A DNA stretch of 57,011 bases from Escherichia phage vB_EcoM_fHy-Eco03, in sequence record MW602648.1; one strand, written 5' to 3'. Within the stretch, counting starts at the first letter, position 1. Each line of letters opens with the position of its first letter. The notes beneath the pieces are model-generated. The model had not been told where the DNA came from. It did not search any database and saw only the letters and a program-made list of their open reading frames with translations. A program made the position numbers and the translations under genes. Shown piece by piece: positions 46 to 31,692 of the stretch.

Positions 46-74
46 TTTACACAAGTCTTAAACTATGTTACAAT
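46..74 (+). promoter_or_regulatory. Sigma70-like promoter (TTTACA-N17-TGtTACAAT) in terminal repeat
   Basis: TTTACA at 46..51, 17-bp spacer, TACAAT at 69..74 preceded by TG at 66..67; about 40 bp upstream of the ATG at 114. Duplicate at 53358..53386. Confidence 0.5.
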
Positions 75-113
75 AGTTATTATTTACAATGTTAAGCACA
101 ATAGGAATTCATC

Positions 114-311
114 ATGAGCTATACTGACCAACAAATTGACACAGCAGCGGTTTTATTGGCACAAGAGGTAGATTTATTGCATTCTTTGATGAATGCTAGT
201 CATGATAGAGCTGAAACTATCAAGAATCAGATACGGGAAATTTGGTCTCAGCAGGTCAGCAACGGTGTATCTTTGGACTTTTTGGTGTGCCGCCTGAGAG
301 GTCAACTGTAA
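114..311 (+). CDS. Hypothetical protein (65 aa)
   Basis: ATG ORF with AGGAA 6 nt upstream; stop overlaps the next start (TAATG). Confidence 0.5.
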   Translation: MSYTDQQIDTAAVLLAQEVDLLHSLMNASHDRAETIKNQIREIWSQQVSNGVSLDFLVCRLRGQL

Positions 312-736
312 TGGTAAACATAAGAAGCAAGGGCCAGAACTTTGAGCGTAAAATGTCGAAAATGTTCAATGAATCGTTCGGGTTATCTACTGAGAGAAAT
401 CTCCAGCAATCTATAAACGGTGGAGATGATTTGATGGGAGTCCCGTTCTTCAGCGTTGAGCTCAAGAAGCACAACACCAAAGCTATCGGGACTTGGTGGA
501 AGCAATGTGCGGAATCAGCACGGCGTCAAAGCAAGATGCCAGTGCTAATCTATGAGATGCCACGGCAAAAGCCCACTGTCGTGATGAGAATTGAGGACGT
601 CAGTCAAGCTTTGGCTGAGGCACCACTGTTGCCAGCGGCTAGTAACAGGCTCTTTGTGGGCTTGGTGGAATTAACATGGGAACAATTTTGCCGGGTCTAC
701 AACTTTTACGTTGCGCCCGGCGTCGAGGTTGCTTAG
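311..736 (+). CDS. Putative PD-(D/E)xK-family nuclease (141 aa)
   Basis: ATG at 311 overlaps the upstream stop. Motif GGDDLMGVPFFSVELKK (D...ELK) resembles the PD-(D/E)xK nuclease signature. Track ORF 242..736 is the same frame with an upstream start. Confidence 0.4.
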   Translation: MVNIRSKGQNFERKMSKMFNESFGLSTERNLQQSINGGDDLMGVPFFSVELKKHNTKAIGTWWKQCAESARRQSKMPVLIYEMPRQKPTVVMRIEDVSQALAEAPLLPAASNRLFVGLVELTWEQFCRVYNFYVAPGVEVA

Positions 737-774
737 GTTGATGCTTGCATCAACACCAGTCAACTGTAGTTGAC
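737..774. terminator. Two adjacent hairpins between convergent genes
   Basis: GTTGATG-cttg-CATCAAC (737..754) and GTCAAC-tgta-GTTGAC (759..774), between the + gene ending at 736 and the - gene ending at 777; no clear U-run. Confidence 0.3.
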
Positions 775-776
775 AC

Positions 777-962
777 TTAGTCTTGTTTCAACTCATCGCA
801 GATAACGCGTTGATTTTGAGCTGGTACAAACCCGAGTTCGAGCAAAGTGTAAGGACTATCGGCGACGCATTGTTCAATGGTAGTCCATTCAGTTTTGGAT
901 TCAATAATTTTGTAACTACAATCATGAGTAGCCACACATGTTGCCAGGATTAAGCCAATCAC
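777..962 (-). CDS. Hypothetical protein (61 aa, GTG start)
   Basis: GTG start overlaps the upstream stop (GTGA); GAAGGAG Shine-Dalgarno upstream. Confidence 0.45.
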   Translation of the reverse strand: MIGLILATCVATHDCSYKIIESKTEWTTIEQCVADSPYTLLELGFVPAQNQRVICDELKQD

Positions 963-1138
963 AAGTAATCTCCTTCAACCAGAAACTCAAACAATTGGTT
1001 GTAAACGTTGCAACCCTTAGCGAAAGAGCTTTCAGCAGGTTTACCATCGCGGACGATCATCATATATTCACCGCCATGAATATCCACCCAGTATTGCATG
1101 CCACCCTTGACAGGGTTACGTTGTAAGAATTTAAACAT
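959..1138 (-). CDS. Hypothetical protein (59 aa), absent from the ORF track
   Basis: Hand-translated: MFKFLQRNPVKGG...VEGDYL. AAGGAG 7 nt upstream of the ATG; start overlaps the upstream stop (TAATG) and stop overlaps the downstream GTG. Confidence 0.5.
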   Translation of the reverse strand: MFKFLQRNPVKGGMQYWVDIHGGEYMMIVRDGKPAESSFAKGCNVYNQLFEFLVEGDYL

Positions 1139-1383
1139 TATTTGCTCCTTACTCCAAGTTTATTCAATAACCACACTGTCATGTCAACCCAGGTTAACGG
1201 TACAGTTTTCGGGGGTTGATAAGACCAGCACTTTCCAGCTCTTTCCGCAATTTCTTCGCGCCTTGCCGCTTGGCGTAATACTGCATCGTCAGAAGTGCCG
1301 GCAGAAAAAATATCGGCAATACCAGATAAATCGCCTCGATGAACACGTCCAGCAAGTTCATGCAGTTGCTCCTCAGAAAACAT
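1138..1383 (-). CDS. Hypothetical protein (81 aa)
   Basis: ATG start overlaps the stop of the upstream small ORF (ATGTTTTCTGA); part of the coupled leftward array. Confidence 0.5.
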   Translation of the reverse strand: MFSEEQLHELAGRVHRGDLSGIADIFSAGTSDDAVLRQAARREEIAERAGKCWSYQPPKTVPLTWVDMTVWLLNKLGVRSK

Positions 1384-1492
1384 AAGACAACACCATTAGA
1401 ATGATGATAAAGACAGCAACGGCTTTCGCCATGCCACGAGATTCATTATACACCGGATTTTCAGTGGTGTACTCAACAACATGCTTTTTCAT
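1373..1492 (-). CDS. Small hydrophobic protein (39 aa), absent from the ORF track
   Basis: Hand-translated: MKKHVVEYTTENPVYNESRGMAKAVAVFIIILMVLSYVF. GGAGG Shine-Dalgarno upstream; hydrophobic C-terminal half suggests a membrane segment. Confidence 0.45.
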   Translation of the reverse strand: MKKHVVEYTTENPVYNESRGMAKAVAVFIIILMVLSYVF

Positions 1493-1549
1493 ACAACCTC
1501 CAGTGTGAGAAATATCAATTGATGGCACCCGCAGATGCCATCTCAGATA

Positions 1550-2122
1550 TTACTCGCCTTCAGTCTCAGATTTTTCTTCAGTCTGAGGTGCTGCGGCTTC
1601 GTAGACCGTCTTACCATCAGTGATTTTACCGGATTTAACATCGTTACGGTAATAACTCATGTAAGACTGTACAACACGTTTTGATTTAACATCATCTTCA
1701 GCCATTTCACAGGCTTTCATGGCATCCGCAAGAGCGAGTTTTGAATCGTCTTTGTCTGCCAAGTTGTAATCTTTGAAGACCGCGTAACAAGTATCTTTGG
1801 TACTCGGTCCTGAAGATTTACGAGTACAACCAGTTGAACCGGAACGACTAGCTTTCTTCACTTCAACATGCTCAACCTCAAGACTTTCAAGTGCCTTATA
1901 CAAAGCAGGCACCAGAACATCCTTGCTGTCTTTGTGGGTGACAGATGCTTCATCATCAAGACTTTTAATCATCTTGACCAGTTGAGCATTTTGGAACTCT
2001 TTGAGAGCGCCTTTCTCAACAACGATGCAACTCATCATGCCTTCCATTGACAGACCATCTTTGATGCCTTCAACAGAAAAAGCGGAAGTTAAGTAAACAT
2101 ACTGAGTGATAGAATTTTCCAT
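1550..2122 (-). CDS. Hypothetical early protein (190 aa)
   Basis: Long ORF with AAGAGGA Shine-Dalgarno upstream; largest ORF in the terminal repeat. Confidence 0.6.
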   Translation of the reverse strand: MENSITQYVYLTSAFSVEGIKDGLSMEGMMSCIVVEKGALKEFQNAQLVKMIKSLDDEASVTHKDSKDVLVPALYKALESLEVEHVEVKKASRSGSTGCTRKSSGPSTKDTCYAVFKDYNLADKDDSKLALADAMKACEMAEDDVKSKRVVQSYMSYYRNDVKSGKITDGKTVYEAAAPQTEEKSETEGE

Positions 2123-2252
2123 GATTTTGTCCTCTTGTTTGTGGTTGACATCATTATAATGTCATGACTTCAGTTGTTTGTACATCTCAAATCACACATT
2201 TTTGTGCAATTTTTATCATGCGGTACGAATTATACCGCATTGTAAAAATTAC

Positions 2253-2453
2253 TCAAGAAATAATTACCTCAGTAACTACTACAGTGTTAGCAGTCACTAA
2301 TGTCAAAACTTTACCAGCTTTTGACCTCACAGCTTTCAACCGTAATTGTGACTGTGTGTAATTATTCCACTCTTCATCACTGAGCACGGTCCTGGTAACT
2401 TCAGGTCGTTCATCTTTGCCAAGCTTCACTACTGTAACTTTGATTAATGGCAT
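2253..2453 (-). CDS. Hypothetical protein (66 aa)
   Basis: ORF packed 4 nt after the upstream gene. Confidence 0.45.
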   Translation of the reverse strand: MPLIKVTVVKLGKDERPEVTRTVLSDEEWNNYTQSQLRLKAVRSKAGKVLTLVTANTVVVTEVIIS

Positions 2454-2456
2454 TGC

Positions 2457-2684
2457 TTAAACCTCAAATTTTGATTCGTCATATTCAGGGTCAGTCACAT
2501 CACGAGTGACACAATTTTGGAGTGCAGTCCAGTATTTTTGGACTTCAGCACCCTCCATGTATAGTGTCCAACCGTGATAGTAACCCTCGAAACTATTCCA
2601 GGTCCGTTCCCAAATCTTTCCGTCTTCGAGCTTATACTCAGTTGGTCTTGAGTCAAACTCACGGATAGTTGTGAATGTTACCAT
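2457..2684 (-). CDS. Hypothetical protein (75 aa)
   Basis: ORF in the coupled leftward array. Confidence 0.45.
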   Translation of the reverse strand: MVTFTTIREFDSRPTEYKLEDGKIWERTWNSFEGYYHGWTLYMEGAEVQKYWTALQNCVTRDVTDPEYDESKFEV

Positions 2685-2753
2685 GCGTTGTTACGCCTCT
2701 GTTGAATAATTTCAATCATGAACTATCACAACTTTGATAGTTCATTGTTGAAA

Positions 2754-2933
2754 CTATTGTAACTTTGTACTAATTTGAATTGTCAATCTAAACTCTTCAA
2801 GTAAGTTATCAATGTTGGATTTATCTTCCACAGCGGTAGAAATTTGATCACTTACAATTTGAGCATTTGACTCAAGAAGTTCAATCAAATGTGTCAATTC
2901 GTCTGCTGTCAATGTCAATTCTTTCATCATCAT
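2754..2933 (-). CDS. Hypothetical acidic protein (59 aa), absent from the ORF track
   Basis: Hand-translated: MMMKELTLTADELTHLIELLESNAQIV... Start overlaps the stop of the upstream ORF (ATGATGA). Confidence 0.4.
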   Translation of the reverse strand: MMMKELTLTADELTHLIELLESNAQIVSDQISTAVEDKSNIDNLLEEFRLTIQISTKLQ

Positions 2934-3100
2934 TCTCCTGAGTTAAATTGTGTGTCAATTTCAATAACTTTGGAACGTACATATTCCAGACAGTCATCAT
3001 AATCGTATGAAGTGTAACTCGGCATTGGAGAATCCAACCCTTCGTTAACATTCCATTCACCTTCATTAACATCAAACCAGATGATTAATTGAGTATGCAT
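2930..3100 (-). CDS. Hypothetical protein (56 aa), absent from the ORF track
   Basis: Hand-translated: MHTQLIIWFDVNEGEWNVNEGLDSPMPSYTSYDYDDCLEYVRSKVIEIDTQFNSGE. AGGAGT Shine-Dalgarno 8 nt upstream of the ATG. Confidence 0.45.
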   Translation of the reverse strand: MHTQLIIWFDVNEGEWNVNEGLDSPMPSYTSYDYDDCLEYVRSKVIEIDTQFNSGE

Positions 3101-3270
3101 TGTTATTACTCCTGTGTTAAGTTGTTTCAGGTGAGACTACTAAACTACTAATAGTCTCTGGATGAAATAACTTCACAGAGAAACAAAACATGTACCAAAT
3201 TGTTAAAGAGCAAAAGACACCATTGACCATCTACCAGATGTGTCTGTTGACTGGTTAAGTACTAACTACA

Positions 3271-3462
3271 CTAAGTAACTACATGCATCCTCCTGAACCG
3301 TTTCTGTGTCAAGTTGTTCAACACATTCAATAAATACATTATGTCAAAGTCCCTGTTGGTTGTACACAATAGAAGTGCAAGTTTGTGCAAGCTTTTAGAA
3401 ATGATAATCATCTGCGGTTGATAGTGATTCTCGTATGCAATTGATATAGTAACGCTCGTCAC
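3271..3462 (-). CDS. Hypothetical protein (GTG start, uncertain)
   Basis: Track ORF; its 5' end overlaps repeat element A, so the start is uncertain. Confidence 0.3.
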   Translation of the reverse strand: MTSVTISIAYENHYQPQMIIISKSLHKLALLLCTTNRDFDIMYLLNVLNNLTQKRFRRMHVVT

Positions 3463-3545
3463 TACTCAGTGTGAAACAGTCGACGGGGGTAAACGTCACA
3501 CACCGGTGCTATATTAGTTCCCCGGCGCAATTTTTATAAAAAATA
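3440..3545. repeat. Imperfect direct repeat element A (about 100 bp)
   Basis: TTGATATAGTAACGCTCGTCACTACTCAGTGTGAAACAGTCGACGGGGGTAAACGTCACACACCGGTGCTATATTAGTTCCCCGGCGCAATTTTTAT aligns with element B 173 bp downstream. Confidence 0.6.
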
Positions 3546-3612
3546 CAATTTCGTTTGTAATCGTAGACATACGGTATAGTTGCGGCCCGGTACCGTCACG
3601 GTGAGTTGTGAT

Positions 3613-3720
3613 TACGATTGTAATGATAACGCACGTTACTATTCACTCTGAAGGGGTGCCGGGGGGTAATTGTCACCTAGGGGTGTTAATTTAAGCCCCG
3701 GCAAATTTTTTATTTTTTTC
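3613..3720. repeat. Imperfect direct repeat element B, spanning the terminal-repeat boundary
   Basis: TTGTAATGATAACGCACGTTACTATTCACTCTGAAGGGGTGCCGGGGGGTAATTGTCACCTAGGGGTGTTAATTTAAGCCCCGGCAAATTTTTTAT; the repeat boundary (3699/3700) falls inside it at CCCC|GGC. Confidence 0.6.
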
Positions 3721-3966
3721 GTCCTTTTTCATCTCAATCACTATCATTATGTGACAATCATCAGGTCACTGTACAATACCGTATACAATAAGCTTCACAA
3801 TCGCAATTGACTCTCCTCCATACAACAAAAGGCCCTCCAAAATTTTTTTATATCTTCCGTACCGAATATAGACACCTCTAAAAAGTGGTGTACTTTTCCA
3901 CCACTGCACGCTATCATTATTAGTAACTTCAACGGACTTCGGTCCTTCATATTGTGGGTTATATAA

Positions 3967-4461
3967 ATGGAAATTCAACAGCTTCTGCCATATCCGTACT
4001 ATATAGCTTGTGTCTTCAACCGAGCACAATACGATGAGCTTCGTGCTCAATTCAACTTACCAAGCTTTGGCTACTGGGAAGACCCAGAAGAAGAATGGCC
4101 AGTGGCTTCTGCATCATTCCTTGCACGCAAGGAACACCCTCGTAAACTGGGTATCATGTGCTTTTATGACAAGGATTTTGACATCTGCTCTGTAGCCCAC
4201 GAAGGTGTGCACATAATGTCTGACCTGATGCATCGCCTCGGCATTACCTACGACCCGTTAAACGACGAGCCGTATGCTTATCAGCTCGAGCAAATCATGT
4301 ACTTCGCACGGCATAAATACAACGAGCTTCACAGCGCTATTGAGCACGTTGAAAAGGCTGTTATTGACACAGGTAATCACCCTTTAGTGCTTGAACAGCC
4401 TCAAAATCAGCTCAATATGCTAAATTCGGCCCCTTCAACTGGCTTTCTGGACGGCAAATAA
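3967..4461 (+). CDS. Hypothetical protein with HExxH motif (164 aa)
   Basis: ORF containing HEGVH; first rightward gene after the terminal repeat. A metallopeptidase-like function is speculative. Confidence 0.4.
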   Translation: MEIQQLLPYPYYIACVFNRAQYDELRAQFNLPSFGYWEDPEEEWPVASASFLARKEHPRKLGIMCFYDKDFDICSVAHEGVHIMSDLMHRLGITYDPLNDEPYAYQLEQIMYFARHKYNELHSAIEHVEKAVIDTGNHPLVLEQPQNQLNMLNSAPSTGFLDGK

Positions 4462-4697
4462 TGACTGTAGTTGCACCTGTAAAACGCGAAGTCACTGTAC
4501 ACTACACAGTGCGCATAACTATACCGCGTATTAAAGACCAAGGGCTTCAGCGCGAAGTCATTGATACATGGGCCAAATTCTCCGTCCGGGCAGACCAGAA
4601 GCTTGACGAGGATAAAGCCAGGGCTATCCTGGAAGAGCGTTATATCAATAAACTGGGTGCAACCCACTTCAAATGGCTTAAATTTAAGGTAAAATGA
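4461..4697 (+). CDS. Hypothetical protein (78 aa)
   Basis: ORF coupled to the flanking genes. Confidence 0.4.
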   Translation: MTVVAPVKREVTVHYTVRITIPRIKDQGLQREVIDTWAKFSVRADQKLDEDKARAILEERYINKLGATHFKWLKFKVK

Positions 4698-5368
4698 TGA
4701 TTAATATCATGTTTGCTATGGGCAAAAACGGAGAATTCGGCCGTTCGCTGGAACTCCATAAATCGATTGTTGCCCAGTCTACTGACGAAGAGCTTCGCGC
4801 GCTTCCTAAAAATGGTCTCCCTTGGGTTTGTCGACCTGACATGCTCTTTTTCAGGACTATGACTAATGGTATTGCTTCCGATACAGGCTATAACGCATTT
4901 GAGCAGCTCCGCGGTCAATTTCCCAGCCAGCAGGTAAGCTCGGTAATCAATAACGCAGCCGGAGAGACATCCCAACACAACGTAATATTGGCAGGACGCA
5001 AAACCTGGTTGCAGATGAGCTTACCGCCTTCTCGCTATCGCACCTTTTTGCCCGTCAGCAGACAAGTATTCAAGGATAACGCTTTCTTGACGCTTGCTGA
5101 TATGTGCAAACACTGTGAAGACGCCGGAAATGACGTCTGGATTGTGGGTGGCAAGGAATTGATTATGTCAGCGCTGGTCGAGCACTCGCTGGGTGACCTC
5201 CGTGTTGACAACATGTTCATCAGTACAATAGCCAATGCGGGTCCGAGTGACATCCTACTGGACCGAGAAAAAATAATGGCGTACATAGATAGTGACTTCG
5301 CGTATAATGATGAATATGCTGAAAACAACGAAGTACTCATCCAACGATTTAGAGGCAAACACAAATGA
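4694..5368 (+). CDS. Dihydrofolate reductase-like protein
   Basis: DHFR-like motifs recalled from E. coli FolA and T4 Frd: LPW...FF..T, ILAGRKTW...LP..R, VWIVGGKELI. Carries insertions; not aligned. Confidence 0.5.
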   Translation: MMINIMFAMGKNGEFGRSLELHKSIVAQSTDEELRALPKNGLPWVCRPDMLFFRTMTNGIASDTGYNAFEQLRGQFPSQQVSSVINNAAGETSQHNVILAGRKTWLQMSLPPSRYRTFLPVSRQVFKDNAFLTLADMCKHCEDAGNDVWIVGGKELIMSALVEHSLGDLRVDNMFISTIANAGPSDILLDREKIMAYIDSDFAYNDEYAENNEVLIQRFRGKHK

Positions 5369-5871
5369 ACATCATAGTTGAGGGACCTGACAATGCTGGT
5401 AAATCTACACTTATTAAGTTCCTTGAATCTAATTTGCGCCGCAGTGTTATTCATAATACTGTTGACAAGGATTCGACATCGGTTCTGGGTAAACAAGCTC
5501 AAGAATTATCGCTTGAAGGTAACATTATTTATGACCGCAGCGCTGTTATATCTGAGTATATCTACTGCCTGGTTCTTCAACGTGCGCCTGTAGTCCCTTT
5601 TAATATATCTCATGTAGCAGACTTATGCGATAATGCTATTGTCGTGTTCTGTCTGCCGCCGTTAGATAAGGTTTTGGCCACAACTAAAGACGAAATGCCT
5701 GGTGTGGTCGAAAATCTTGAAAAGCTATATAACCAGTATGACAACTTGATTGATGAGTTAGTTATGATGGGTAAACAGTTCTTTGTATATGACTGGACCA
5801 TTGAAGAAGATGGTGCAGAAGCAGCACTAGAATACATCAATGAACGTAACGATAAGGAGTGGACTAAATGA
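5365..5871 (+). CDS. P-loop deoxynucleoside monophosphate kinase (thymidylate-kinase-like)
   Basis: N-terminal Walker A IVEGPDNAGKST, as in dNMP and thymidylate kinases; size about 168 aa. Confidence 0.5.
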   Translation: MNIIVEGPDNAGKSTLIKFLESNLRRSVIHNTVDKDSTSVLGKQAQELSLEGNIIYDRSAVISEYIYCLVLQRAPVVPFNISHVADLCDNAIVVFCLPPLDKVLATTKDEMPGVVENLEKLYNQYDNLIDELVMMGKQFFVYDWTIEEDGAEAALEYINERNDKEWTK

Positions 5872-6590
5872 CTAATAAAGTAGTTGTGCAAAAGGTTGTA
5901 GGTGAGATTTCTATCCGTTGTGAAGCCTCATCCGACCGCCGCGATGTTAGCATGCAAGACTTGCTGAATATCGCAAATATGGGTACAGGTAACGAAGATA
6001 CAGTGACAGGGCGTGAAGGCGTCAACGTATCTATTACTATGTCTGGACCTGATGCACCTGCTGAACCGCTGTTCACACCAGTAGAAGAGCCTCGTCCACG
6101 TGGTATCAGCTATGGTGCAATCAAAAAAGCTGATGACTTACGACGTGAGCAGGAAATTGAAAAGCTTGCGGTAGAGCGTCGTACAGAAGCAGTAAACATT
6201 TTCCGTCGTCGTTTATACGATGCAATGCACGGTTACGAGATGAATCCTGACGGCTTCAGAGCTGCATTGGAAAATGTTATCTGTTCTGCAGCTGACACTT
6301 ATCGTAGCATGCTTACGTCTGCCGATAAAGACAGAGCTGAACGCGACTTGATGAAAACAAACCTCGGTAAACTGAATACTGAGAACATGGAGTTGCAGCG
6401 GCAGGTAGATGATGCTGTTCGTGCTATGCAAAAACAGGCTGAAGACTTCAACAGACAAGCTGATGTTCATGCACAAACTGTTGATAACATCCTTGCAACG
6501 CGTGTCGCAACAGAAAAAGAGCTTGAAGAAGCTAACCGTAAAATCAAGCGCATGAAAGATTATGCCGTACGTTTGAATAGTATTTGCTAA
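5868..6590 (+). CDS. Hypothetical protein (240 aa)
   Basis: ORF; C-terminal half looks coiled-coil. Confidence 0.45.
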   Translation: MTNKVVVQKVVGEISIRCEASSDRRDVSMQDLLNIANMGTGNEDTVTGREGVNVSITMSGPDAPAEPLFTPVEEPRPRGISYGAIKKADDLRREQEIEKLAVERRTEAVNIFRRRLYDAMHGYEMNPDGFRAALENVICSAADTYRSMLTSADKDRAERDLMKTNLGKLNTENMELQRQVDDAVRAMQKQAEDFNRQADVHAQTVDNILATRVATEKELEEANRKIKRMKDYAVRLNSIC

Positions 6591-6880
6591 TGGACTTATT
6601 CGACTTAGTTGATAACCCACAAGTAGGACAGTCGGCTGAGAAGAAGCCCTTTAACTGGGAAGAGTTCAAAGCTGGCAAACCTGCTATATCTCGCTCAGGT
6701 GAGATAGCTTACTTTGGTGGTGAATACACACATCCCTTGGCAAGTAAGGACCGTTTTATAGCTATCATGACTGTTCCGGACCATGCTATAGTCAAATATG
6801 GTAAAGAAACAATGCCGTACGTGATTGATAATCGTGGTTACTTTGAAGGAATGGCTCCTTTGCTGGTAGAAATGGCATAA
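6584..6880 (+). CDS. Hypothetical protein (98 aa)
   Basis: ORF. Confidence 0.4.
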   Translation: MLMDLFDLVDNPQVGQSAEKKPFNWEEFKAGKPAISRSGEIAYFGGEYTHPLASKDRFIAIMTVPDHAIVKYGKETMPYVIDNRGYFEGMAPLLVEMA

Positions 6881-7016
6881 AACCGGATAAAAATAAGAGT
6901 GTCTAATCACTTCTTCTATATAAGGCGAGTACTTATAAGGATTTAGGCTGTAGACACTCTATCTCACCCTTTTAGACACTCCCATCTTTCACTTCTGCCT
7001 TATTCCTTATATAGCA

Positions 7017-7075: not shown

Positions 7076-7399
7076 ATGGCACGAAAACCACAAAAGACAC
7101 GCGATGCCACAGCAGAACTGCTGGCTAGCATGAATCGTATTCAGCTCGACCCGCTTGAAGTTATTGCACGTGCCATCAAACTGGCTGAAGCTGACAGTGA
7201 TTATAAGACTATGATTGACGGTTCACTCGGCATTATGCCGTATATGTACCCTAAATTAAAAGAGTCTGTTGTTAAAGCTGATATTGACCAGACCATTTCT
7301 GGCGGCGGTGTTAACCTTAACATTACAGTCGGCGGTAAGAAAATAGTCGGCGAAGAACCAGAAGAAGAACCTGAGGACGAGGATAATAATGAATCTTGA
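7076..7399 (+). CDS. Putative terminase small subunit
   Basis: 107-aa ORF immediately upstream of, and overlapping, the large terminase; acidic C-terminus. Called by position only. Confidence 0.4.
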   Translation: MARKPQKTRDATAELLASMNRIQLDPLEVIARAIKLAEADSDYKTMIDGSLGIMPYMYPKLKESVVKADIDQTISGGGVNLNITVGGKKIVGEEPEEEPEDEDNNES

Positions 7400-22468: not shown

Positions 22469-22927
22469 ATGAGTGAGCCCTCTACTTTTGAAATTGTTTC
22501 TGATGATGGTACAGGTACCGTTATCGAGTATCGCATGACACTCGCAAATGCTCTGCAATCCTGGGGTGCGCTTAAAAAAGCCGGTAAACTCCTTAAAGGT
22601 ATTGGTAGTGCCGATATTGTTGGTGCCGAAAATAAAATCGATAAGTCCAAAGCTATCTTGGCACTTGTCGAAGCGCTGCTTGAAAACGCGTCTTCTCCTG
22701 AGTTTACTGAAATTGAAAAGCTGATTTTTAACAACACCATTGTAGTTGAAAACGGTGACGCTAAGAAGCTACCCACAATTCAGGACCGCCACTTTAATGC
22801 TAACCGCTCGCACATTCTCCCTGTGCTGCAGAAAGGTTTAGTGTTCCAGTTCGGTGGTTTTTTCTCAGGGAATGGCCTGTCAGGAATAGCGGGTCTGGCC
22901 ATTCTCGCGACGTCAGGGAAAAGCTAA
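22469..22927 (+). CDS. Tail assembly chaperone (0-frame product)
   Basis: 152-aa ORF immediately upstream of the tape measure gene; contains the slippery heptamer T_TTT_TTC at 22858..22864. Confidence 0.6.
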   Translation: MSEPSTFEIVSDDGTGTVIEYRMTLANALQSWGALKKAGKLLKGIGSADIVGAENKIDKSKAILALVEALLENASSPEFTEIEKLIFNNTIVVENGDAKKLPTIQDRHFNANRSHILPVLQKGLVFQFGGFFSGNGLSGIAGLAILATSGKS

Positions 22928-23097
22928 AGCAGGACCTTGAACAAGGTACTGACTGGTTTATATGGCTGCCAATCCTCGAGGGTAAAGTTACCCTCGGGGA
23001 GTTAAAGCGCGACTATACTCTAGACGACTTATGCGACCTGCATTTTGCCATGTTCGACTTCGAGGAGCTAAAAGACAATGGCGACAATAATCGATAG
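22858..23097 (+). other. Programmed -1 frameshift site and extension of the tail chaperone
   Basis: 0-frame codons GGT TTT TTC give heptamer T TTT TTC (22858..22864). The -1 frame is open from there to TAG at 23095..23097 (...REKLKQDLEQGTDWFIWLPILEGKVTLGELKRDYTLDDLCDLHFAMFDFEELKDNGDNNR), overlapping the tape-measure start. Confidence 0.6.
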
Positions 23098-24769: not shown

Positions 24770-25665
24770 GTGATATTCTTGCAGGTGCGCTTGATACTGC
24801 TCAAGGTTATTATGACGATGCAAAGAACCGTCTCTTCGGGGACGGTACTACCACTCTGCGCTTCCGCAACTGCGGAGGCGTTGTACTGGACGCAGTTACC
24901 AGCGAGGACCATGAGTCTGAGTTGACGATTGCAGACAATACATTAGAGACCGGTGCAAAGGCTTCTGACCACGCAGCACTCGAGCCGAAAGTAATTAGTG
25001 TAACCGGCACTGTAGTCGGTTACGATAATACGTCCGTACAAGAGGACTTTATCTCGGATATTACAGGTCTGAGAAGTACAGACTTCCTTGATAACCTTGG
25101 GCTGCCATCTGCGATGTCTACTGTAATAGATAAGACTCGAGATATGGTAGTTAATAAGTTAGCTACCTTTATAGACTGGGGCGCACTAGACGCTGCTATA
25201 TCTTCGTCCTTAGTTCCCTGGTTGCCGGACTTTAGTATCGCCGAGGAATTGAAGACCTCGGATAACATGCGTATTGAACAGATGTACCGTAACTTCCTCG
25301 ACTTCCAAAAGAATGTCGTATTCTGTACGGTTGACACGGGCATCTTCCAGTATGAAAACATGTTGCTTCAGTCTGTACGTGTAAGACAACAAAAAGATGG
25401 TTCTGCCGAATTTACTTTGCGATTCCGTGAAGTTATCGAAGTACCAATCACAGTTACAAACGCTGTTGCTTCTAAGTCGACAGGTCGACCAGGTAACAAC
25501 GGTACGAAGAAGAGTGGTCGTGCAGCCAGCCAGGGTGATGCAACAAAGAACAAGAACATTAACAACGCAACGTCTATCAAAGACAAAAAGGTCAATGACA
25601 ACCGCGGCGTAGGTGTTACACTTGGTGATATGCTGGGTGTTAACTTGAGAGGTTTCTTCGGATGA
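24766..25665 (+). CDS. Tail/baseplate assembly protein
   Basis: 299-aa ORF after the tape measure gene. Confidence 0.35.
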   Translation: MSDILAGALDTAQGYYDDAKNRLFGDGTTTLRFRNCGGVVLDAVTSEDHESELTIADNTLETGAKASDHAALEPKVISVTGTVVGYDNTSVQEDFISDITGLRSTDFLDNLGLPSAMSTVIDKTRDMVVNKLATFIDWGALDAAISSSLVPWLPDFSIAEELKTSDNMRIEQMYRNFLDFQKNVVFCTVDTGIFQYENMLLQSVRVRQQKDGSAEFTLRFREVIEVPITVTNAVASKSTGRPGNNGTKKSGRAASQGDATKNKNINNATSIKDKKVNDNRGVGVTLGDMLGVNLRGFFG

Positions 25666-26054
25666 TTTTTACAACAACTTCATTCTTAGACCTGGCCAAT
25701 GAGGATGCCAGCGGTCTGTATGACCTGGCTCCTACTACTGACCCACGACAGAGCATCTCGATCGCTGTCGGCGGTTACTCGTATCAGGTTGACCTTGTGT
25801 ATAATACTGTTGCCGAGTTGTGGATGGCTACAGTAACCGACGTGTCAAAATCAACTGTACTTTGTTCCAGCTTCGCATTACAATATGGACGTTTAGCCAT
25901 GGGTAACTGGAATACTCGCGTAGCGCTTGCCGTCGTTGATTATTCAGCTAACCGTATTGGCCCATTGACGCTTAATGACATGGGGAGCCGATGCAGTGTC
26001 TACATTATCGACAAGTCAGCCTACCCGGCAGTTTGGCCGAGCCTTACGTCTTGA
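25662..26054 (+). CDS. Tail protein (130 aa)
   Basis: ORF in the baseplate module. Confidence 0.35.
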   Translation: MIFTTTSFLDLANEDASGLYDLAPTTDPRQSISIAVGGYSYQVDLVYNTVAELWMATVTDVSKSTVLCSSFALQYGRLAMGNWNTRVALAVVDYSANRIGPLTLNDMGSRCSVYIIDKSAYPAVWPSLTS

Positions 26055-26943
26055 GGTCGGCAACGACTCCGAAGGCATTATAATTGAAAACCTTCGCGTT
26101 ACCTTTGATATTCAGAAGGGTAACGCGAAGCATCCCAATAAGGCTACCATAACCGTATTCAACTTGAAAGAGTCGAACCGTTATAAACTGGCAACCAAGG
26201 TTTGGGATTACGTCCGTCTCTCTGTGGGTTATGGCCTTAACAATATTACCTATCACCGAATCTTTGAAGGCAATATTTCCCGTGTAAACGACCAACGTAA
26301 TGGACTGGACATCCAGACTGTTTTGGAGTGTGGTGACGGGCGAACTGCCTTTACACAAAGCTTTGTATCTTCAACTATGGCTAAAGGTGCAACATACGAT
26401 GATGTTATCGATGAGTGCCTCGGCCAGATGGAAGGTATCGAAGAAGGTTATATCTGTGTAGACAAAGATACTCCTTTCACTCGCGCACGTACCCTGTACG
26501 GACAGGCCTCTCATATACTGGACGGTGTTGCCAAAGCTAATAATGCAACATGGTCAATACAGGATAATAAGCTTACCATCATCCCAAACGATTCCGTTAC
26601 GGATGCTGATGCTATTATCCTGTCCGCTTCTACTGGTATGGTAGGCGCACCTAAAGGCACAGACAAAGGACTGGAGGTGTCAGCTAACCTGAACCCTGAA
26701 TTTGCTATCGGCGGTTTCATCCAGGTAGATTCTATGTTTACACAGTACAACGGACAGTATAAAATTGACACCGTAAGATTCCGGGGAGACAACCATCCCA
26801 AAGGACCCTGGCTGGCAGACTTGACGCTTCTCGGCGGAGAGTTCGCCAAAAAGCTACGTCGTACTAAGAAGCCCAAGAAGCCACGTAAACCTGTTGAGTA
26901 TATCTATTCCACAGACGTAGGTGACACAGGTGTGAGAGGATAA
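25975..26943 (+). CDS. Putative baseplate hub protein (start uncertain)
   Basis: 322-aa ORF; position matches the P2 gpD / Mu gp44 slot; basic C-terminal tail. Confidence 0.4.
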   Translation: MTWGADAVSTLSTSQPTRQFGRALRLEVGNDSEGIIIENLRVTFDIQKGNAKHPNKATITVFNLKESNRYKLATKVWDYVRLSVGYGLNNITYHRIFEGNISRVNDQRNGLDIQTVLECGDGRTAFTQSFVSSTMAKGATYDDVIDECLGQMEGIEEGYICVDKDTPFTRARTLYGQASHILDGVAKANNATWSIQDNKLTIIPNDSVTDADAIILSASTGMVGAPKGTDKGLEVSANLNPEFAIGGFIQVDSMFTQYNGQYKIDTVRFRGDNHPKGPWLADLTLLGGEFAKKLRRTKKPKKPRKPVEYIYSTDVGDTGVRG

Positions 26944-26944
26944 G

Positions 26945-27586
26945 ATGGAAGCTGACTTTAATAATGCTTCGCTTGACGATACCATCGAGATGGCGCTGTT
27001 CGCTGCCTTAATAGGTAAGCGCCATTGTCTTCCTGGTCGTGTCGCGTCCTTTGATAGTGTCTCGCAAACAATTGTTGCCGAACCTATGATAAGCGCGGAG
27101 ACGGAAGATGGACAGCGTGTTCCTTTACCACCAGTTGCTGATGTTCCTTTATTTCAGCTTGGCGGTGGTTCATTCGTCATTACTTTAGAACCGAAAGCTG
27201 GCGACCCTTGTTTGCTTCTTGTTTCTGACCGTGCCATTGATGCTTGGTATGAGACAGGAGAGAACAGGGTGCCAGCTGACTTCCGACAGAACGACCTGTC
27301 TGACTGCTTTGCTCTTGTGGGCTTCAGACCTAAACCGCTGGCTATAACAAACTGGATGGAAGGTGTGACAATTCGTAAGGTTGACGGGTCACAGTATATC
27401 AATATCAACAACGCCGGTAAAGTATCTATAAAGGCAACGTCTGTTGATTTGCTTGACACACCAACTTTAACTGCGCCAAACACTAGCGCTACTTTTAAAG
27501 AAGCGACTATTGGCGGTATTAAGTTTGGTACCCACAAACACAAAGAGAACGGCGACGGTGGTGGTATTACTGACGGCCCGCAATAA
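26945..27586 (+). CDS. Putative baseplate spike protein (gpV-like)
   Basis: 213-aa ORF; N-terminal GRV..FD..S motif and position are consistent with gpV-like spike proteins. Confidence 0.45.
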   Translation: MEADFNNASLDDTIEMALFAALIGKRHCLPGRVASFDSVSQTIVAEPMISAETEDGQRVPLPPVADVPLFQLGGGSFVITLEPKAGDPCLLLVSDRAIDAWYETGENRVPADFRQNDLSDCFALVGFRPKPLAITNWMEGVTIRKVDGSQYININNAGKVSIKATSVDLLDTPTLTAPNTSATFKEATIGGIKFGTHKHKENGDGGGITDGPQ

Positions 27587-27594
27587 GGTGAGTT

Positions 27595-27954
27595 ATGAGA
27601 ACCAGACGACTTGATTCAAACTGGGATTGGACCTTTGGACGTGGCCGTGAAGACTATGCCGAAGATACCGAATCCATCGAACAGCGCATCAAACAAATTT
27701 TACAGTGCTTTACTAACGACTGGGTTCATGACCTGGAGTATGGCACTAACTGGTTCGGTCTTATGGATAAGCCTGTTAAATGGGCAGACCTTGAGACTGC
27801 GATTAAAACTGCGATACTCGCAGAATACGGTGTACAGTCGATTGATAGCTTTGAGCTTAACTTCGACCCTGATACACGTAAAGCGGTATATACTGTTGAG
27901 GTTAACGATGTATACCACAACAAAACAAAAATTTCTGACACTGTTGCGGGGTAG
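27595..27954 (+). CDS. Putative baseplate wedge protein (gpW / gp25-like)
   Basis: 119-aa ORF between spike-like and J-like genes; size and position typical. Confidence 0.45.
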   Translation: MRTRRLDSNWDWTFGRGREDYAEDTESIEQRIKQILQCFTNDWVHDLEYGTNWFGLMDKPVKWADLETAIKTAILAEYGVQSIDSFELNFDPDTRKAVYTVEVNDVYHNKTKISDTVAG

Positions 27955-27956
27955 TC

Positions 27957-29114
27957 ATGGGCTCAATTACTAATACAGGCTATGAACCCGTTGCACTTGC
28001 TGACTGGATTTCACGCTTCGAAACTTTGTTCCGTCGTGTGTACGGTTCTGATATTGACTTGTCTGCTAAGTCTGCAGATGGTCAGATGGTTGGTATTCTT
28101 GCGCAGATGTTTGCCGACCAGGACGAGCAAGTTGCAACTGGCTTTGCCATGCTGGACCCTAACCAGGCTTCTGGTACATGGGTTGACCAGTTCCTTGCTT
28201 ACTTGGCGCTGCGTCGTAAGTCAGCACAAACAACTCAGCTGACGATCGTTAAGATTGAAGGTATGCGCGATACTGTTATTCGTCCGCCTTATGTCGTTGT
28301 TTCTAAGTCTGGTGTTAAGTTCCAGCTTAACTCAACTGTTGCTATCGGCGATGATGGCTATGTGCAAACCAGCTTCAGCTCAGTAGAGCAAGGCCAGTTC
28401 AAAGTACTTGCTGGTGACGAGCTGACTCCTGAGACAGTTGTGCTCGGTGTAACTAAAGTAACTAACATGCAGGTATCGTCTGGTGGTTCTGGCGTCGAGC
28501 TTGACGCAGAAGCTATTGATCGTGCATTTGATTCTTACGGTATTACATCTCAGAATACTGTTGATGGTACTGTTGCAGCTATTCGCCAGATGGATGACGT
28601 TATTGCGTGTAACGGTTACGAGAACGAGGACGATGCAACTGACGCTAACGGTCAGGCACCGCATAGTCAGTGGATTATTGTCGACGGTGGAACACCTGCT
28701 AATATCGCTAAAGAGATTATGACTCGTAAGGCGCCAGGTGTTAAGCAAATTGGTGCGCAGACTTATGGCTGGACCGATGCATCTGGCACAGAACGAATTG
28801 CTAAATGGGACCAGCCTACTTATGTTGAACCATACATGAGTATTGTTGTTGCCCGTAAAGAGTTGTTTACCGATGTGTCTGAAGATTTTATCCGCCGCAC
28901 TATAGCATCAAAAATCTTTAACATCGGCGAAGAAGTATCTGCGTTTGAGCTTGGCAGACTGCTGCAAGAAAACCAGAACTTCTATATTAAGCAATTCTTG
29001 ATTGGCCGCACAGCTGAAACAACTACCGAGACGATTCTAAACATCGGTATTAAAGAGCGTGCGATTGTTAACACCGACAGAATCTCTATAGCGGTGGTGA
29101 ATACTAATGGCTAA
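27957..29114 (+). CDS. Putative baseplate J-like protein
   Basis: 385-aa ORF following the gp25-like gene. Confidence 0.5.
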   Translation: MGSITNTGYEPVALADWISRFETLFRRVYGSDIDLSAKSADGQMVGILAQMFADQDEQVATGFAMLDPNQASGTWVDQFLAYLALRRKSAQTTQLTIVKIEGMRDTVIRPPYVVVSKSGVKFQLNSTVAIGDDGYVQTSFSSVEQGQFKVLAGDELTPETVVLGVTKVTNMQVSSGGSGVELDAEAIDRAFDSYGITSQNTVDGTVAAIRQMDDVIACNGYENEDDATDANGQAPHSQWIIVDGGTPANIAKEIMTRKAPGVKQIGAQTYGWTDASGTERIAKWDQPTYVEPYMSIVVARKELFTDVSEDFIRRTIASKIFNIGEEVSAFELGRLLQENQNFYIKQFLIGRTAETTTETILNIGIKERAIVNTDRISIAVVNTNG

Positions 29115-29757
29115 CTATCGTAAACTGTTAATTCAGCAATACGCTCAGCAGCCAAAAGCCCTGGCAACAATCCATGGTTTCGACGATGCTATCCAGGAGA
29201 TTTGGGATGGTATGGTCGCAGTAACAAACAGCCTCAATATTGACTTGGCTTACGGTAAAGCGCTAGATAATGTTGCGGCACGGGTAGGCGCTAGTCGGTA
29301 TATTAAGAAAGGTGTTGAGCGTACTTTCTTCGGCTTTAATAACCTGGATACCACGGCAGGTTTCGGCGGTTCGTCTGGTTATCGTGGTGGTGTATTCTAC
29401 AGATACGGAGTGTCAACATTCGACCCGTTAACACTGGACGATACAGACTTACGCACATACATCAAGATGAAAATCTGGAAGAACATGCAGCAAGCTAACT
29501 TCCCGTACTTGATTGCGTTCTTAACCGAGTTCTTTGGCGAGAACAACTTTATTGTTACTGACAATGAAGATATGACGGTTAATATTGAAATTTATGGGAC
29601 ACTAACGCCGATTAAGCAAGTGTTGATTGTTAACTATGATATTCTGCCGCGTGCGTCAGGAGTCAAGTACAATCTCAATACGTCAATCACACCGACTGAC
29701 AGCCTTTATCGCTATGTCACAGTTAACTTACCAGCACAGGTGAATGTATATGGCTAA
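29107..29757 (+). CDS. Putative baseplate/tail protein (gpI-like)
   Basis: 216-aa ORF after the J-like gene. Confidence 0.4.
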   Translation: MANYRKLLIQQYAQQPKALATIHGFDDAIQEIWDGMVAVTNSLNIDLAYGKALDNVAARVGASRYIKKGVERTFFGFNNLDTTAGFGGSSGYRGGVFYRYGVSTFDPLTLDDTDLRTYIKMKIWKNMQQANFPYLIAFLTEFFGENNFIVTDNEDMTVNIEIYGTLTPIKQVLIVNYDILPRASGVKYNLNTSITPTDSLYRYVTVNLPAQVNVYG

Positions 29758-31099
29758 CGTACAAACTCGCCCGGACAATACTATCTTTGCGGAAAGCGCA
29801 TTGACGGGTGAAGTAACTGAATTCCAGAACCTTGCTCGTGGTTGGGGTTCTACCCTTACATATTCAGCGGGTATTCCGCCTATGGAGTGGTTTAACTTCA
29901 TCGGCCAGCGTTCTGATAAGGGTATTCACTATATCCTGCAGCAGGGTGTGGACCAGTGGAATGCCACTGAGACCTACCCTGTTGGGGCACTTGTTAAAGT
30001 TCTTGCCGATAACTGCCTTTATAAGGCGCTTACTCAGAACCTTAACAAAGAACCAAAAGCTAACGGTAACGACTGGGTTAAAGTTCTGGACGTTACAGCC
30101 GCATCTGCTGCTGCACGTCAGGTAGGTCGTAACACTGGTAATGTTGTACAGATTGGTGCATTTGGTATTGGTTCTACAGCTGAACAGATTACCAATGCTG
30201 ATTCACCAACTCAGTCTGGTTTTTACGGTTTACCAGCTACGGGTGCAGGTAACCCTGTATCTGGTCAGGCATCTGAGATTATCCATATTCAATATGATGC
30301 TAACAACGCTACTCAGTACGCTAAAGGTATCAATAAGCGTACCATCTATACTCGTGACCAAGTAAACGGTACTTGGACCGCATGGGAAGGTCAGTATGGC
30401 CCGAGCAACAAACCAACTGCGCAAGAGCTTGGCATCAACCAGGACTTTATACCGATGGATGGCTCTGAGTCAATCCGTGGTAACCTCGGTACTGTGGGCT
30501 GGGTTCATATTGCTCGCACTACGTCCGACCTATTGCGCGCTGCTAATAGCAGCGGTGTTGGTGTTGCCGAAATTGTTGGTAACGTTGCTGGAGGACTGGC
30601 CGTACAGCACCGACTGACATCTGTGTCGGTAGCAGCAAACTCTCATACAGCTTTCCTGGGTATGTGGGGTTCCGTTGCAATGACCAGCATTAAGCAGGTA
30701 CTGCAATCCAATGGTTCAACAAGATTTGACCTGGATGTATGCCGTCCTGGTTCAGTAGCTGACCGCCGTGTTACTGGTGCACAACTGGATGGTGCTAATA
30801 GCCGATTCACCACAACAAACGGCTTTACTTTGCAGGAAAACGGTGTTAGAGTATATTCACCTAACAACCCACAACCTGTGGATGTTTCCTGGGCCGTTCG
30901 TCGGGTTCGTCTTGGCAGTGAAGTTCGTAACAACCGTAACGGCAGTGAGTCGTTTGTACTCCGCATGCCAGCCGGTCACATGGCAACTGGTTTTGATATT
31001 CACTCTAAAGGCGGTCGTGAGGATGAGTTCAATGCCGTATTCTCTCGCCCAATTCAGATGAACATTAACGATGTATGGTATACGGTGGACCAACTATGA
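29744..31099 (+). CDS. Putative tail fiber protein
   Basis: 451-aa ORF after the baseplate genes; Gly/Asn/Thr-rich. Confidence 0.45.
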   Translation: MYMANVQTRPDNTIFAESALTGEVTEFQNLARGWGSTLTYSAGIPPMEWFNFIGQRSDKGIHYILQQGVDQWNATETYPVGALVKVLADNCLYKALTQNLNKEPKANGNDWVKVLDVTAASAAARQVGRNTGNVVQIGAFGIGSTAEQITNADSPTQSGFYGLPATGAGNPVSGQASEIIHIQYDANNATQYAKGINKRTIYTRDQVNGTWTAWEGQYGPSNKPTAQELGINQDFIPMDGSESIRGNLGTVGWVHIARTTSDLLRAANSSGVGVAEIVGNVAGGLAVQHRLTSVSVAANSHTAFLGMWGSVAMTSIKQVLQSNGSTRFDLDVCRPGSVADRRVTGAQLDGANSRFTTTNGFTLQENGVRVYSPNNPQPVDVSWAVRRVRLGSEVRNNRNGSESFVLRMPAGHMATGFDIHSKGGREDEFNAVFSRPIQMNINDVWYTVDQL

Positions 31100-31629
31100 T
31101 TATCTTTGAAAACTTTACTAAAGCTGTTCCGGTTACGCCGGAACAGTTAAAACTCTCTGAGCTGGGAGTTCAGTTCACTGTTGACAATACAGGCCGTTGC
31201 TGGTATGATATTGTTAATGAGCTCAACAAAGAAAATAAGGACGATTACAAAGTTCTTATCGATAATGACCGCCGTGTTGTAAGCTGGAGCAAAGATGCTT
31301 CTTCTATATTCCCGGTAGACCAGTCTGTTGTTGTTACTAGCAAACTGCCCGCAGGTCTTGCCAACAACAACGGCATGTGGAAGTTTGATGCTTCAGCTAA
31401 AGCATTCGTGCCTGACAGCTCGGCAGAAGAGAATTCAGCAATACGCTGGAAAGCCGCTGAACTTGCTGCTGTCAGCATTGAGATTGATACTCTCAAAGAT
31501 GCAGTAGAAGTGGACGAAGCAACTGAATCTGAAATTGAACGATTAGCTGCTCTTAAAAAGTATCGTATCGAGCTCAACCGCTATGATACTTCAGGCGGTG
31601 GAACAGGTAAACGCCCAGTTAAACCGTAA
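31075..31629 (+). CDS. Putative tail fiber assembly protein
   Basis: 184-aa ORF directly after the fiber gene. Confidence 0.35.
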   Translation: MVYGGPTMIIFENFTKAVPVTPEQLKLSELGVQFTVDNTGRCWYDIVNELNKENKDDYKVLIDNDRRVVSWSKDASSIFPVDQSVVVTSKLPAGLANNNGMWKFDASAKAFVPDSSAEENSAIRWKAAELAAVSIEIDTLKDAVEVDEATESEIERLAALKKYRIELNRYDTSGGGTGKRPVKP

Positions 31630-31636
31630 CTTATAC

Positions 31637-31670
31637 GCCTGCTCAATTTTTAGAGCAGGCTTATTTATTT
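31637..31670 (+). terminator. Rho-independent terminator after the tail genes
   Basis: Stem GCCTGCTC (31637..31644) / GAGCAGGC (31653..31660), then TTATTTATTT. Confidence 0.7.
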
Positions 31671-31692
31671 ACGGTACTAGATGTGCTATAAT
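31664..31692 (+). promoter_or_regulatory. Candidate promoter with extended -10 (TTTATT-N17-TGcTATAAT) for the lysis cassette
   Basis: TATAAT 31687..31692 preceded by TG at 31684..31685; TTTATT at 31664..31669; GGAG Shine-Dalgarno and ATG at 31727 downstream. Confidence 0.4.

Follow-up and report, generated by a model that had tools for sequence, protein, structure and literature searches.

How are the genes of a virulent phage transcribed when no RNA polymerase gene can be recognised in its genome, and which promoters would serve them? The question is raised by the 57,011-nucleotide sequence of Escherichia phage vB_EcoM_fHy-Eco03 (MW602648.1; the window, meaning this whole stretch at its full length), for which a preliminary description, made from the letters alone, had listed three near-consensus host-type promoters of the form TTTAC(A/T)-N17-TATAAT together with two weaker extended -10 variants, and had proposed that the phage relies on the host sigma-70 holoenzyme, perhaps modulated by a DksA/TraR-like protein. 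We found that these sites belong to a family of about 18 with the form (G)T-N-TAC(A/T)-N17/18-(T/C)ATAAT, and that the sites are real and occur far beyond chance frequency. Judged from the sequence, they are most probably sigma-70 promoters of the phage T4 early type in a phage without its own polymerase, which would in addition carry a TraR-family modulator.

The two ends of the window proved identical over 3,699 bp in an end-to-end sequence comparison (1..3699 equals 53313..57011, 0 mismatches), and the window is thus a 53,312-bp genome followed by a 3,699-bp wrap-around, through which all features of the first 3.7 kb appear twice. Megablast placed it in the BP63 group of virulent, Rosemountvirus-like myophages, with 93% identity to Salmonella phage vB_SEnST11_KE25 (genus Rosemountvirus) and ~79% identity to BP63, SE13 and several E. 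coli phages; Erwinia phage SOI901 and the Loughboroughvirus phages SE4 and AEV23 are further kin. The five annotated genomes of KE25, BP63, SOI901, SE4 and AEV23 are the relatives compared throughout.

For the enrichment tests, both strands of a single 53,312-bp genome unit were compared with 200 dinucleotide shuffles. The strict pattern TTTAC[AT]-N17-TATAAT was observed 6 times where 0.04 were expected, and the wider pattern T[TG]TACN-N17/18-NATAAT was observed 17 times against an expected 0.58 and a shuffle maximum of 3. The intergenic location given in the preliminary description was upheld, matches not being equally frequent in coding DNA: 13 of the 17 lie in intergenic DNA, which in the curated gene model makes up 7.0% of the genome (binomial p 1.7e-12), and an exact TATAAT has T[TG]TAC 17/18 bp away in 10 of 19 intergenic cases versus 2 of 24 coding ones. 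All 13 intergenic matches are co-directional with the next gene. The -10 element lies 18 to 144 nt from the start codon for 11 of these 13, with two open reading frame (ORF) starts corrected (20874, and the start below P50017; sites are named as in Table 1); the distance to the next modelled gene is 108 nt for P3366 and 516 nt for P3775. Enrichment was strong for the specific variant and only modest for a generic sigma-70 matrix that was based on consensus frequencies, 8 of whose 26 top matches were intergenic, while a simple consensus scan was barely above the shuffles, with slightly more 9-of-12 matches. Generic scans are only modestly enriched because the family departs from TTGACA, and the signal therefore sits in one promoter variant and not in general promoter-likeness.

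In all 18 sites the -10 element is at or near TATAAT (exact in 11, and CATAAT, TACAAT, TATACT or TATCAT in the others), and the spacer measures 17 bp at 13 sites and 18 bp at 5. The -35 box matches TTGACA at 4-5 of 6 positions (TTTACA, TGTACA), and the consensus G at the third position is found in none. Direct reading agreed with the earlier account of the sites at 46, 7017 and 10394. The site at 18138 also stands, as a full member of the family and not as the weaker variant it had been called. At 31664, before the lysis genes, the site is there, but among the relatives the extended -10 (TGcTATAATCC) alone is kept in all while the -35 region drifts; this one site is like the extended -10 (TGnTATAAT) promoters, from which it differs in being single and in lying directly after a terminator. 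It falls in intergenic DNA when the holin start is taken to be 31727, that ATG being the most likely start (GGAG 7 nt upstream; 81 aa, 31727..31972, in the frame of ORF 31583..31972); a start at 31681 is improbable, where the annotation of the closest relative puts a 64-aa ORF in another frame. What gave way was the count of three plus two, about 18 members having been found. A division into separate TGTACA and TTTACA regulons was also considered and was weakened, as either box can replace the other at orthologous promoters, and TATACA can stand there too.

The pattern was found at orthologous places in KE25, BP63, SOI901, SE4 and AEV23, with the hexamers kept while spacers and flanks diverge. 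When four orthologous intergenic regions were aligned by MAFFT in a motif-blind way, TTTAC/GTGTAC and TATAAT appeared as the invariant blocks, together with CC after the -10 at P7017, where TTTAC and TCGTTATAATCC were the conserved blocks. The same alignments showed TATACA at two orthologous -35 positions, leaving T-N-T-A-C-(A/T) as the conserved core. Among more distant relatives, namely IMG/VR loci anchored on a 987-aa tail protein (45-49% protein identity; 59-64% G+C), there were zero family sites and the loci were of no use for covariation; the family is therefore confined to the enterobacterial clade.

Sites in the early arm read (A)nGTG-T(T/G)TAC(A/T)-N17/18-TATAAT, with AAAAAAGG-type tracts immediately upstream of the -35 box. 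Such tracts, for example AAAAAAGGTG before P40045, sit where we take the proximal UP subsite to lie, and we read them as putative UP-like elements; a TGn extension is present at four sites (46, 18138, 31684 and 48709). The T4 early consensus has a -35 box GTTTAC at -36..-31, A-rich sequence at -40..-44 and GT-rich sequence before -12, the T at -33 being named as a peculiarity of T4 (PMC1524935), and right after infection T4 early promoters are served by a host polymerase that has not been modified (PMC2988021). A scan of the first 50 kb of T4 for T[TG][TG]AC-N16-18-TAnAAT gave 8 matches, every one with TTTAC. The family described here shares with T4 early promoters the T for G at -33, often with a G before it, TATAAT at 17 bp, an A-rich tract around -40 to -44 and occasional TGn or G/T-rich bases before the -10, and T4 is likewise a virulent phage without its own polymerase whose early promoters are served by the host sigma-70 holoenzyme. 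The -35 box is of the published T4 early type, and therefore a known phage solution and not a new element.

The likeness to T4 is not complete. Unlike in T4, the box here also precedes structural and lysis genes, for which T4 uses the gp55 sigma factor and TATAAATA; its second -35 position varies (TTTAC, TGTAC, TATAC); and the scans, which covered part of the ORFs, recognised no homologue of Alt, AsiA, MotA or gp55. In further contrast to the T4 early class, which serves only genes expressed right after infection, the best matches precede terminase, scaffold, adaptor, tail and sheath genes, and the promoters are predicted from the sequence. The T4 middle (MotA box) and late (gp55) types differ in motif, and such proteins were likewise absent among those scanned ORFs. 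Nor do the sites behave as T7/N4-type promoters, conservation being limited to the two hexamers and no polymerase domain being found in the large ORFs or the annotated relatives.

That no phage RNA polymerase is recognised, as the preliminary description had said, was borne out: neither an RNA polymerase nor a sigma factor is annotated in the five relatives, and none was found by Pfam/PHROGs in about 35 ORFs scanned, the large ones included. The ORF scans returned a family-A DNA polymerase, a helicase, a clamp-like protein, nucleases and structural proteins, the sole transcriptional match being the TraR-like protein, and in about 20 early ORFs Pfam and PHROGs gave no sigma, anti-sigma, activator or ADP-ribosyltransferase. 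An 843-aa ORF (50421..52952) was considered as a cryptic polymerase and rejected; it has a full-length match to PHROG 3022, annotated as DNA primase, whereas neither Pfam-A (E <= 0.001) nor the PDB sequences (best E 0.13) gave a match. The protein is called 'DNA primase' in the relatives, and its fold and activity are taken solely from that annotation.

The DksA/TraR-like protein noted earlier is a genuine member of its family. It scores 36.7 bits against PF01258 (curated cut-off 24.9), it carries a CxxC-N17-CxxC zinc finger, its R51R52 aligns with the RR of TraR as the equivalent of R48/R49, and its best solved relative is F-plasmid TraR in the polymerase complexes 6N57 and 5W1S (E 4.5e-6, nearly full length). 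Every motif that PMC9239242 names as functionally important is present (DxxDxA, four cysteines, the RR pair); in that work, the TraR homologues of phages are shown to bind polymerase, with inhibition of the promoters of rRNA and ribosomal proteins, and they are proposed to free polymerase for phage production. The protein is like F-plasmid TraR, lambda Orf73 and P2 Orf82 in size (74 vs 73 aa), C4 zinc finger, DxxDxA tip motif, RR pair and C-terminal helix region, and like P2 Orf82 it is encoded with replication genes, its gene lying near the end of the P38953-headed operon next to the DNA polymerase gene. Unlike that family, it is encoded by a virulent myophage and not by a temperate phage or plasmid, and its activity here is predicted only.

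Within the family, two flavours of promoter can be told apart by the discriminator. The 7 bases after the -10 hold 4-6 G/C at the five structural TTTAC sites and the lysis promoter, versus 1-3 at the 13 others (window sites, Mann-Whitney p 0.0004); taken as group means over the relatives, the values are 3.4-6.0 versus 1.0-4.0, which overlap (p 0.005). The five structural-arm promoters have TTTAC in 25 of 25 non-redundant orthologs, whereas early orthologs are half TTTAC and half TGTAC, the early promoters of the window being a mixture of TTTAC and TGTAC, with TATAC in relatives. Upstream AT content is marginally higher at early sites (p 0.09). Discriminator composition is the property by which DksA, ppGpp and TraR tell promoters apart, which would make this difference a reasonable lead for temporal control.

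Several of the promoters contain or adjoin hairpins. The one at P18138, which holds the -10 hexamer in its loop, is present in each of the six genomes, with folding z between -2.6 and -7.3, and has 94.6% of cells paired, 2 compensatory pairs and a covariation score reached by 0 of 500 shuffles, in a set of 7 sequences only. At P20813 the -35 box pairs with the -10 region, so that 97.3% of cells are paired compared with <=46% when the partners are slid; folding z is -3.3 to -7.2 in all genomes and covariation is weak (48 of 500 shuffles), and the many G-U pairs point to a sense-strand RNA. In the early arm, the spacer hairpins of P44489 and P45674 were flagged by the terminator scan and are conserved, each being followed by TATAAT and a T-rich tail, although the tails are only moderately U-rich and vary between relatives, and those of P44489, P45674 and P41999 show compensatory differences in SOI901. 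Terminator-then-promoter modules lie at 12274..12303, 31637..31660 and 38973..39001. Promoters and hairpins that would end or stabilise the upstream message thus appear to be packed together in this dense genome.

Between P10394 and the scaffold gene, a leader of ~140 nt hardly changes among genomes whose identity is elsewhere about 79%, and the leader fold (152 nt) has -59.5 kcal/mol and a z of -3.0. Its hairpin shows no covariation because it is nearly invariant, and a search of the leader against Rfam gave no family, the E-value search returning noise only. The leader may hold a site for RNase III, act as a translational operator, or function as a small RNA or a DNA site. KE25 annotates a 33-aa ORF in this region.

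Could the sites be something other than promoters of the host polymerase? Intergenic DNA is generally enriched in A/T-rich words, and the slight excess of 9-of-12 matches in the simple consensus scan would be in keeping with chance matches in AT-rich intergenic DNA; the observed and shuffled counts (17 against 0.58) refute a chance origin, and with the same -35 pentamer at a fixed distance from 10 of 19 intergenic TATAAT words, co-direction of all intergenic members, and hexamers kept while spacers diverge across about 79%-identical genomes, it is vanishingly improbable. The structural-arm sites, especially 18138 and 20813, might on another account be primarily RNA hairpins within a long late transcript, for processing, 3'-end stabilising or attenuation, and not promoters. 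The strong hairpins in all six genomes, the compensatory changes at P18138, the G-U-rich pairing at P20813 and the terminator-like hairpins nested in the P44489 and P45674 spacers agree with it. However, a hairpin needs no exact TTTAC(A/T) and TATAAT at exactly 17 bp, and the same hexamers are found at the hairpin-free sites 7017, 10394 and 12676; moreover, the position of the P18138 stem with respect to the -10 differs by one base between genomes, which suggests two independent constraints. As promoter and hairpin roles can coexist, this account competes only as an exclusive explanation, and as such it is distinctly unlikely.

A closer rival keeps the -10 as the only host-type element and has the T-N-TAC box depend on a phage-encoded or virion-delivered factor, such as an AsiA/MotA-like pair, an Alt-like alpha modifier or a small activator. 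The second and third -35 positions are normally the best conserved; here, the second varies (T, G or A), and the third is always T, with G absent in about 90 orthologous instances. The canonical pattern TTGACN-N16-18-NATAAT is missing from the window and has 0-1 matches per relative. About 20 early ORFs have no recognisable function, so that an unrecognised polymerase modifier or a small polymerase-binding protein is possible, and in T4, according to PMC1524935, Alt-ribosylated alpha is believed to contact the T at -33 by preference. Yet the first promoters after injection must act without newly made phage proteins, and the T4 early promoters, which have the same box, are strong when the host polymerase is unmodified (PMC2988021). 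The 17/18-bp spacing, the UP-like A-tracts and TGn are ordinary sigma-70 architecture, and in the part of the ORFs that was scanned, AsiA, MotA and Alt had no homologue. TTTACA, in addition, works as a -35 box in the lac promoter. We consider dependence on such a factor unlikely.

The departures of the -35 box and the early ORFs without recognisable function also weigh against our reading of the sites as T4-early-type sigma-70 promoters, and three more points are to be set beside them. The ortholog table came from a pattern search that requires the motif, by which hexamer identity is inflated, an effect only partly removed by the MAFFT alignments. The best matches precede late structural genes, and so temporal control cannot be explained from these sites by themselves. 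In the library searched, no transcript mapping, RNA-seq or polymerase-binding data were found for this group of phages. Sigma-70 binding, start sites, timing and the effect of the TraR-like protein are here read from what was computed, namely the pattern, its statistics, position, orientation and conservation, and the protein motifs. Taken together, hexamers, spacing, position, orientation, conservation and the lack of a recognised polymerase support the proposed reliance on the host sigma-70 holoenzyme.

In the sigma-70 reading, as promoter anatomy suggests, sigma region 2 would read the near-perfect -10 and region 3 the TGn where present, region 4 would read the T4-early-type box (G)T-N-TAC(A/T) 17 or 18 bp upstream, and the alpha C-terminal domains would bind the A-tracts just upstream of early promoters. 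The promoters, often placed directly behind or overlapping hairpins or terminators, would divide the genome into short transcription units: the leftward early/replication arm from about 50017 down to 33042, the small leftward genes from 3775 down to 777, and rightward the nucleotide-metabolism genes from 3889, the structural/lysis arm from 7017 to 33029 and the primase unit from 50053. The replication operon also encodes the TraR-like protein, which would most likely bind the secondary channel of the host polymerase and shut down rRNA and ribosomal-protein promoters, whereby polymerase would be freed for phage promoters, and it may discriminate between early promoters (AT-rich discriminator and UP element) and structural ones (GC-richer).

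It may further be proposed, though we hold it to be rather unlikely, that the whole programme is timed by one host sigma factor and two kinetic classes of T4-early-like promoter, with the TraR-like protein or RNA processing at promoter-embedded hairpins as the early-to-late switch. The early class would have a UP-like A-tract and an AT-rich discriminator; the structural/lysis class would have TTTAC (the lysis box drifts) and a GC-richer discriminator, several members lying in conserved sense-strand hairpins. If this were true, temporal control would be achieved without a phage sigma factor, polymerase or DNA-binding activator.

Table 1. Predicted promoters, hairpins and gene blocks of the window (BP63-annotated, ortholog annotated as a promoter in BP63).
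Feature	Position	Strand	Description
P46	46..74	+	TTTACA-N17-TACAAT, TGt; upstream of 65-aa ORF 114..311; orthologs in KE25, BP63, SOI901, SE4; BP63-annotated
P46, exact copy	53358..53386	+	present solely through the wrap of the window
P3366	3338..3366	-	TGTACA-N17-CATAAT; within 736-bp non-coding 3231..3966; orthologs in BP63, SOI901
P3775 (candidate)	3746..3775	-	TGTACA-N18-CATAAT
P3889 (weaker candidate)	3889..3917	+	TGTACT-N17-TATCAT, A-tract upstream; before the nucleotide-metabolism genes from 3967
P7017	7017..7045	+	TTTACA-N17-TATAAT; first packaging/structural promoter; followed by gene 7076..7399, then terminase large subunit
P10394	10394..10422	+	TTTACA-N17-TATAAT, A7 tract upstream; between portal and scaffold genes
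P12676	12676..12704	+	TTTACT-N17-TATAAT; upstream of head-tail adaptor gene (12730); BP63-annotated
P18138	18138..18166	+	TTTACT-N17-TATAAT, TGc; upstream of Ig-domain structural protein gene; BP63-annotated
P20813	20813..20841	+	TTTACT-N17-TATAAT; upstream of sheath-like gene (DUF3383), start probably 20874
Lysis-cassette promoter	31664..31692	+	TTTATT-N17-TATAAT, TGc; extended -10 TGcTATAATCC at 31684..31694; TTTATT -35 not conserved
P38953	38925..38953	-	TTTACT-N17-TATAAT, A6 tract; heads replication operon ending with the TraR-like gene; BP63-annotated
P40045	40017..40045	-	TGTACA-N17-TATACT, AAAAAAGGTG before; BP63-annotated
P41999	41971..41999	-	TGTACC-N17-TATAAT; upstream of helicase gene; -35 in BP63 is TATACA; BP63-annotated
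P44489	44460..44489	-	TTTACG-N18-TATAAT; BP63-annotated
P45674	45646..45674	-	TGTACA-N17-TATAAT
P47259	47231..47259	-	TGTACA-N17-CATAAT, AT-rich upstream region; TATACA in SE4, AEV23
P48730	48701..48730	-	TTTACA-N18-TATAAT, TGg, A5 tract; within ORF 48568..48876
P50017	49989..50017	-	TTTACT-N17-CATAAT; leftward half of divergent pair
P50053	50053..50082	+	TGTACA-N18-TATAAT; rightward half of divergent pair; upstream of 109-aa ORF and primase-like gene
Leader hairpin	10430..10503	+	74 nt, imperfect; starts the ~140-nt leader 10423..10565 from P10394 to scaffold gene (10566)
P18138 hairpin	18153..18177	+	8-bp stem GTGCCTGC/GCAGGCAC; -10 hexamer in loop
P20813 hairpin	20806..20847	+	~42 nt; encloses entire promoter; CTGGCCATTTACTTG pairs with CGGGTA-T-AATGGCCAG; many G-U pairs
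Terminator-like hairpin and T-run	31637..31660	+	directly upstream of lysis promoter; same place in KE25, BP63, SE4, AEV23
Terminator-like hairpin	38973..39001		just upstream of P38953
P41999 spacer hairpin	41976..41991	-	ATCAC-atggaa-GTGAT; in SOI901 CGCGC-atggaa-GCGCG
P44489 spacer hairpin	44464..44487	-	TACGCCA..TGGCGTA, then T-rich tail, terminator-like; compensatory TACATCA..TGGTGTA in SOI901
P45674 spacer hairpin	45650..45667	-	followed by TAATACTTTT, terminator-like; folding z -2.4 to -6.4 in all genomes
Small nuclease unit	begins after 46	+	65-aa ORF 114..311 and PDDEXK/RusA-like nuclease gene
Small leftward genes	777..3230	-	
Non-coding region	3231..3966		736 bp
Nucleotide-metabolism genes	3967..6880	+	
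Packaging, head, tail and lysis genes	7076..33029	+	
Replication/early arm	49986 down to 33042	-	
TraR-family protein	33320..33544	-	74 aa; D9VSDMA14, C40/C43/C61/C64, R51R52
Primase unit	50114..52952	+	

Some other features of the window touch the promoters or their surroundings. The non-coding region 3231..3966 has no convincing ORF, and BP63 has a similar gap of ~820 bp; it carries two leftward and one rightward family promoters, and CTTGCA words are repeated upstream of P3366 (aaaagCTTGCAcaaaCTTGCActtc) and kept in BP63 and SOI901. The region may be an origin or control region. The word TAGACA(C) is enriched intergenically (8 of 16 copies versus 1.1 expected, p 4e-6), with copies at 6901..6977, 40..45, 3564, 3869, 47241 and 52981. 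Three of them, which are kept in relatives, stand 44-150 bp upstream of P7017, just in front of the small gene that precedes the terminase large subunit, and one copy abuts the -35 box of P46 in every relative (tgTAGACgTTTACA). The idea that TAGACA forms another class of -35 box was rejected, no -10-like hexamer being seen by eye 16-18 bp on; the motif could be a regulator site or packaging (pac/TerS) boxes.

An HNH ORF of 122 aa (12326..12694; PF01844 at 34.8 bits) lies between the capsid-gene terminator and P12676, the -35 box of which its 3' end overlaps; it is absent from KE25, BP63, SOI901, SE4 and AEV23 and is probably a homing endonuclease. Motif matches within coding sequence were found at 37181..37210 (-), 42332..42360 (-), 25856..25884 (+) and 26737..26765 (+). 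KE25 and SOI901 share the match that falls within the thymidylate-synthase gene, and two in the baseplate region are kept in all relatives, spacers included, which fits protein-coding constraint better than a promoter, although internal promoters could still be present. ARAGORN found no tRNA anywhere in the window, and the entire window gave nothing against Rfam at the gathering threshold. In SOI901, two annotated tRNA genes (Gln, Pro; 5192..5352) match the place of a 354-bp non-coding gap of the window (38900..39253).

Both the observation and its interpretation are already known as public predictions for sister phages. The RefSeq record of BP63, the Rosemountvirus type species, has 7 promoters 'similar to TTGACA(N15-18)TATAAT with 2bp mismatch', which are the orthologs of those so marked in Table 1; P7017, P10394, P20813 and most early sites are omitted there. 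The record of Klebsiella phage AEV23 (Loughboroughvirus) also carries promoter features, and for phage S144 the lack of an RNA polymerase gene, 18 predicted host-type promoters and possible control of later genes by a DksA-type protein were described (PMC7432712). These are generic predictions, in which neither the consensus of the family nor its lack of TTGAC is described, nor how early and late promoters differ, nor the hairpins embedded in promoters. What is added here is modest, namely the family consensus, the two flavours of promoter and the hairpins within promoters.

The curated list of about 18 promoters would be useful for annotating Rosemountvirus and Loughboroughvirus genomes, which are under development for biocontrol of Salmonella and Klebsiella, and it would also serve the design of reporter or engineered phages and the choice of fragments for transcription tests with the TraR-like protein. 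The discriminator difference and the embedded hairpins offer cheap, testable leads on how the order of expression may be set in a phage without its own sigma factor or polymerase.

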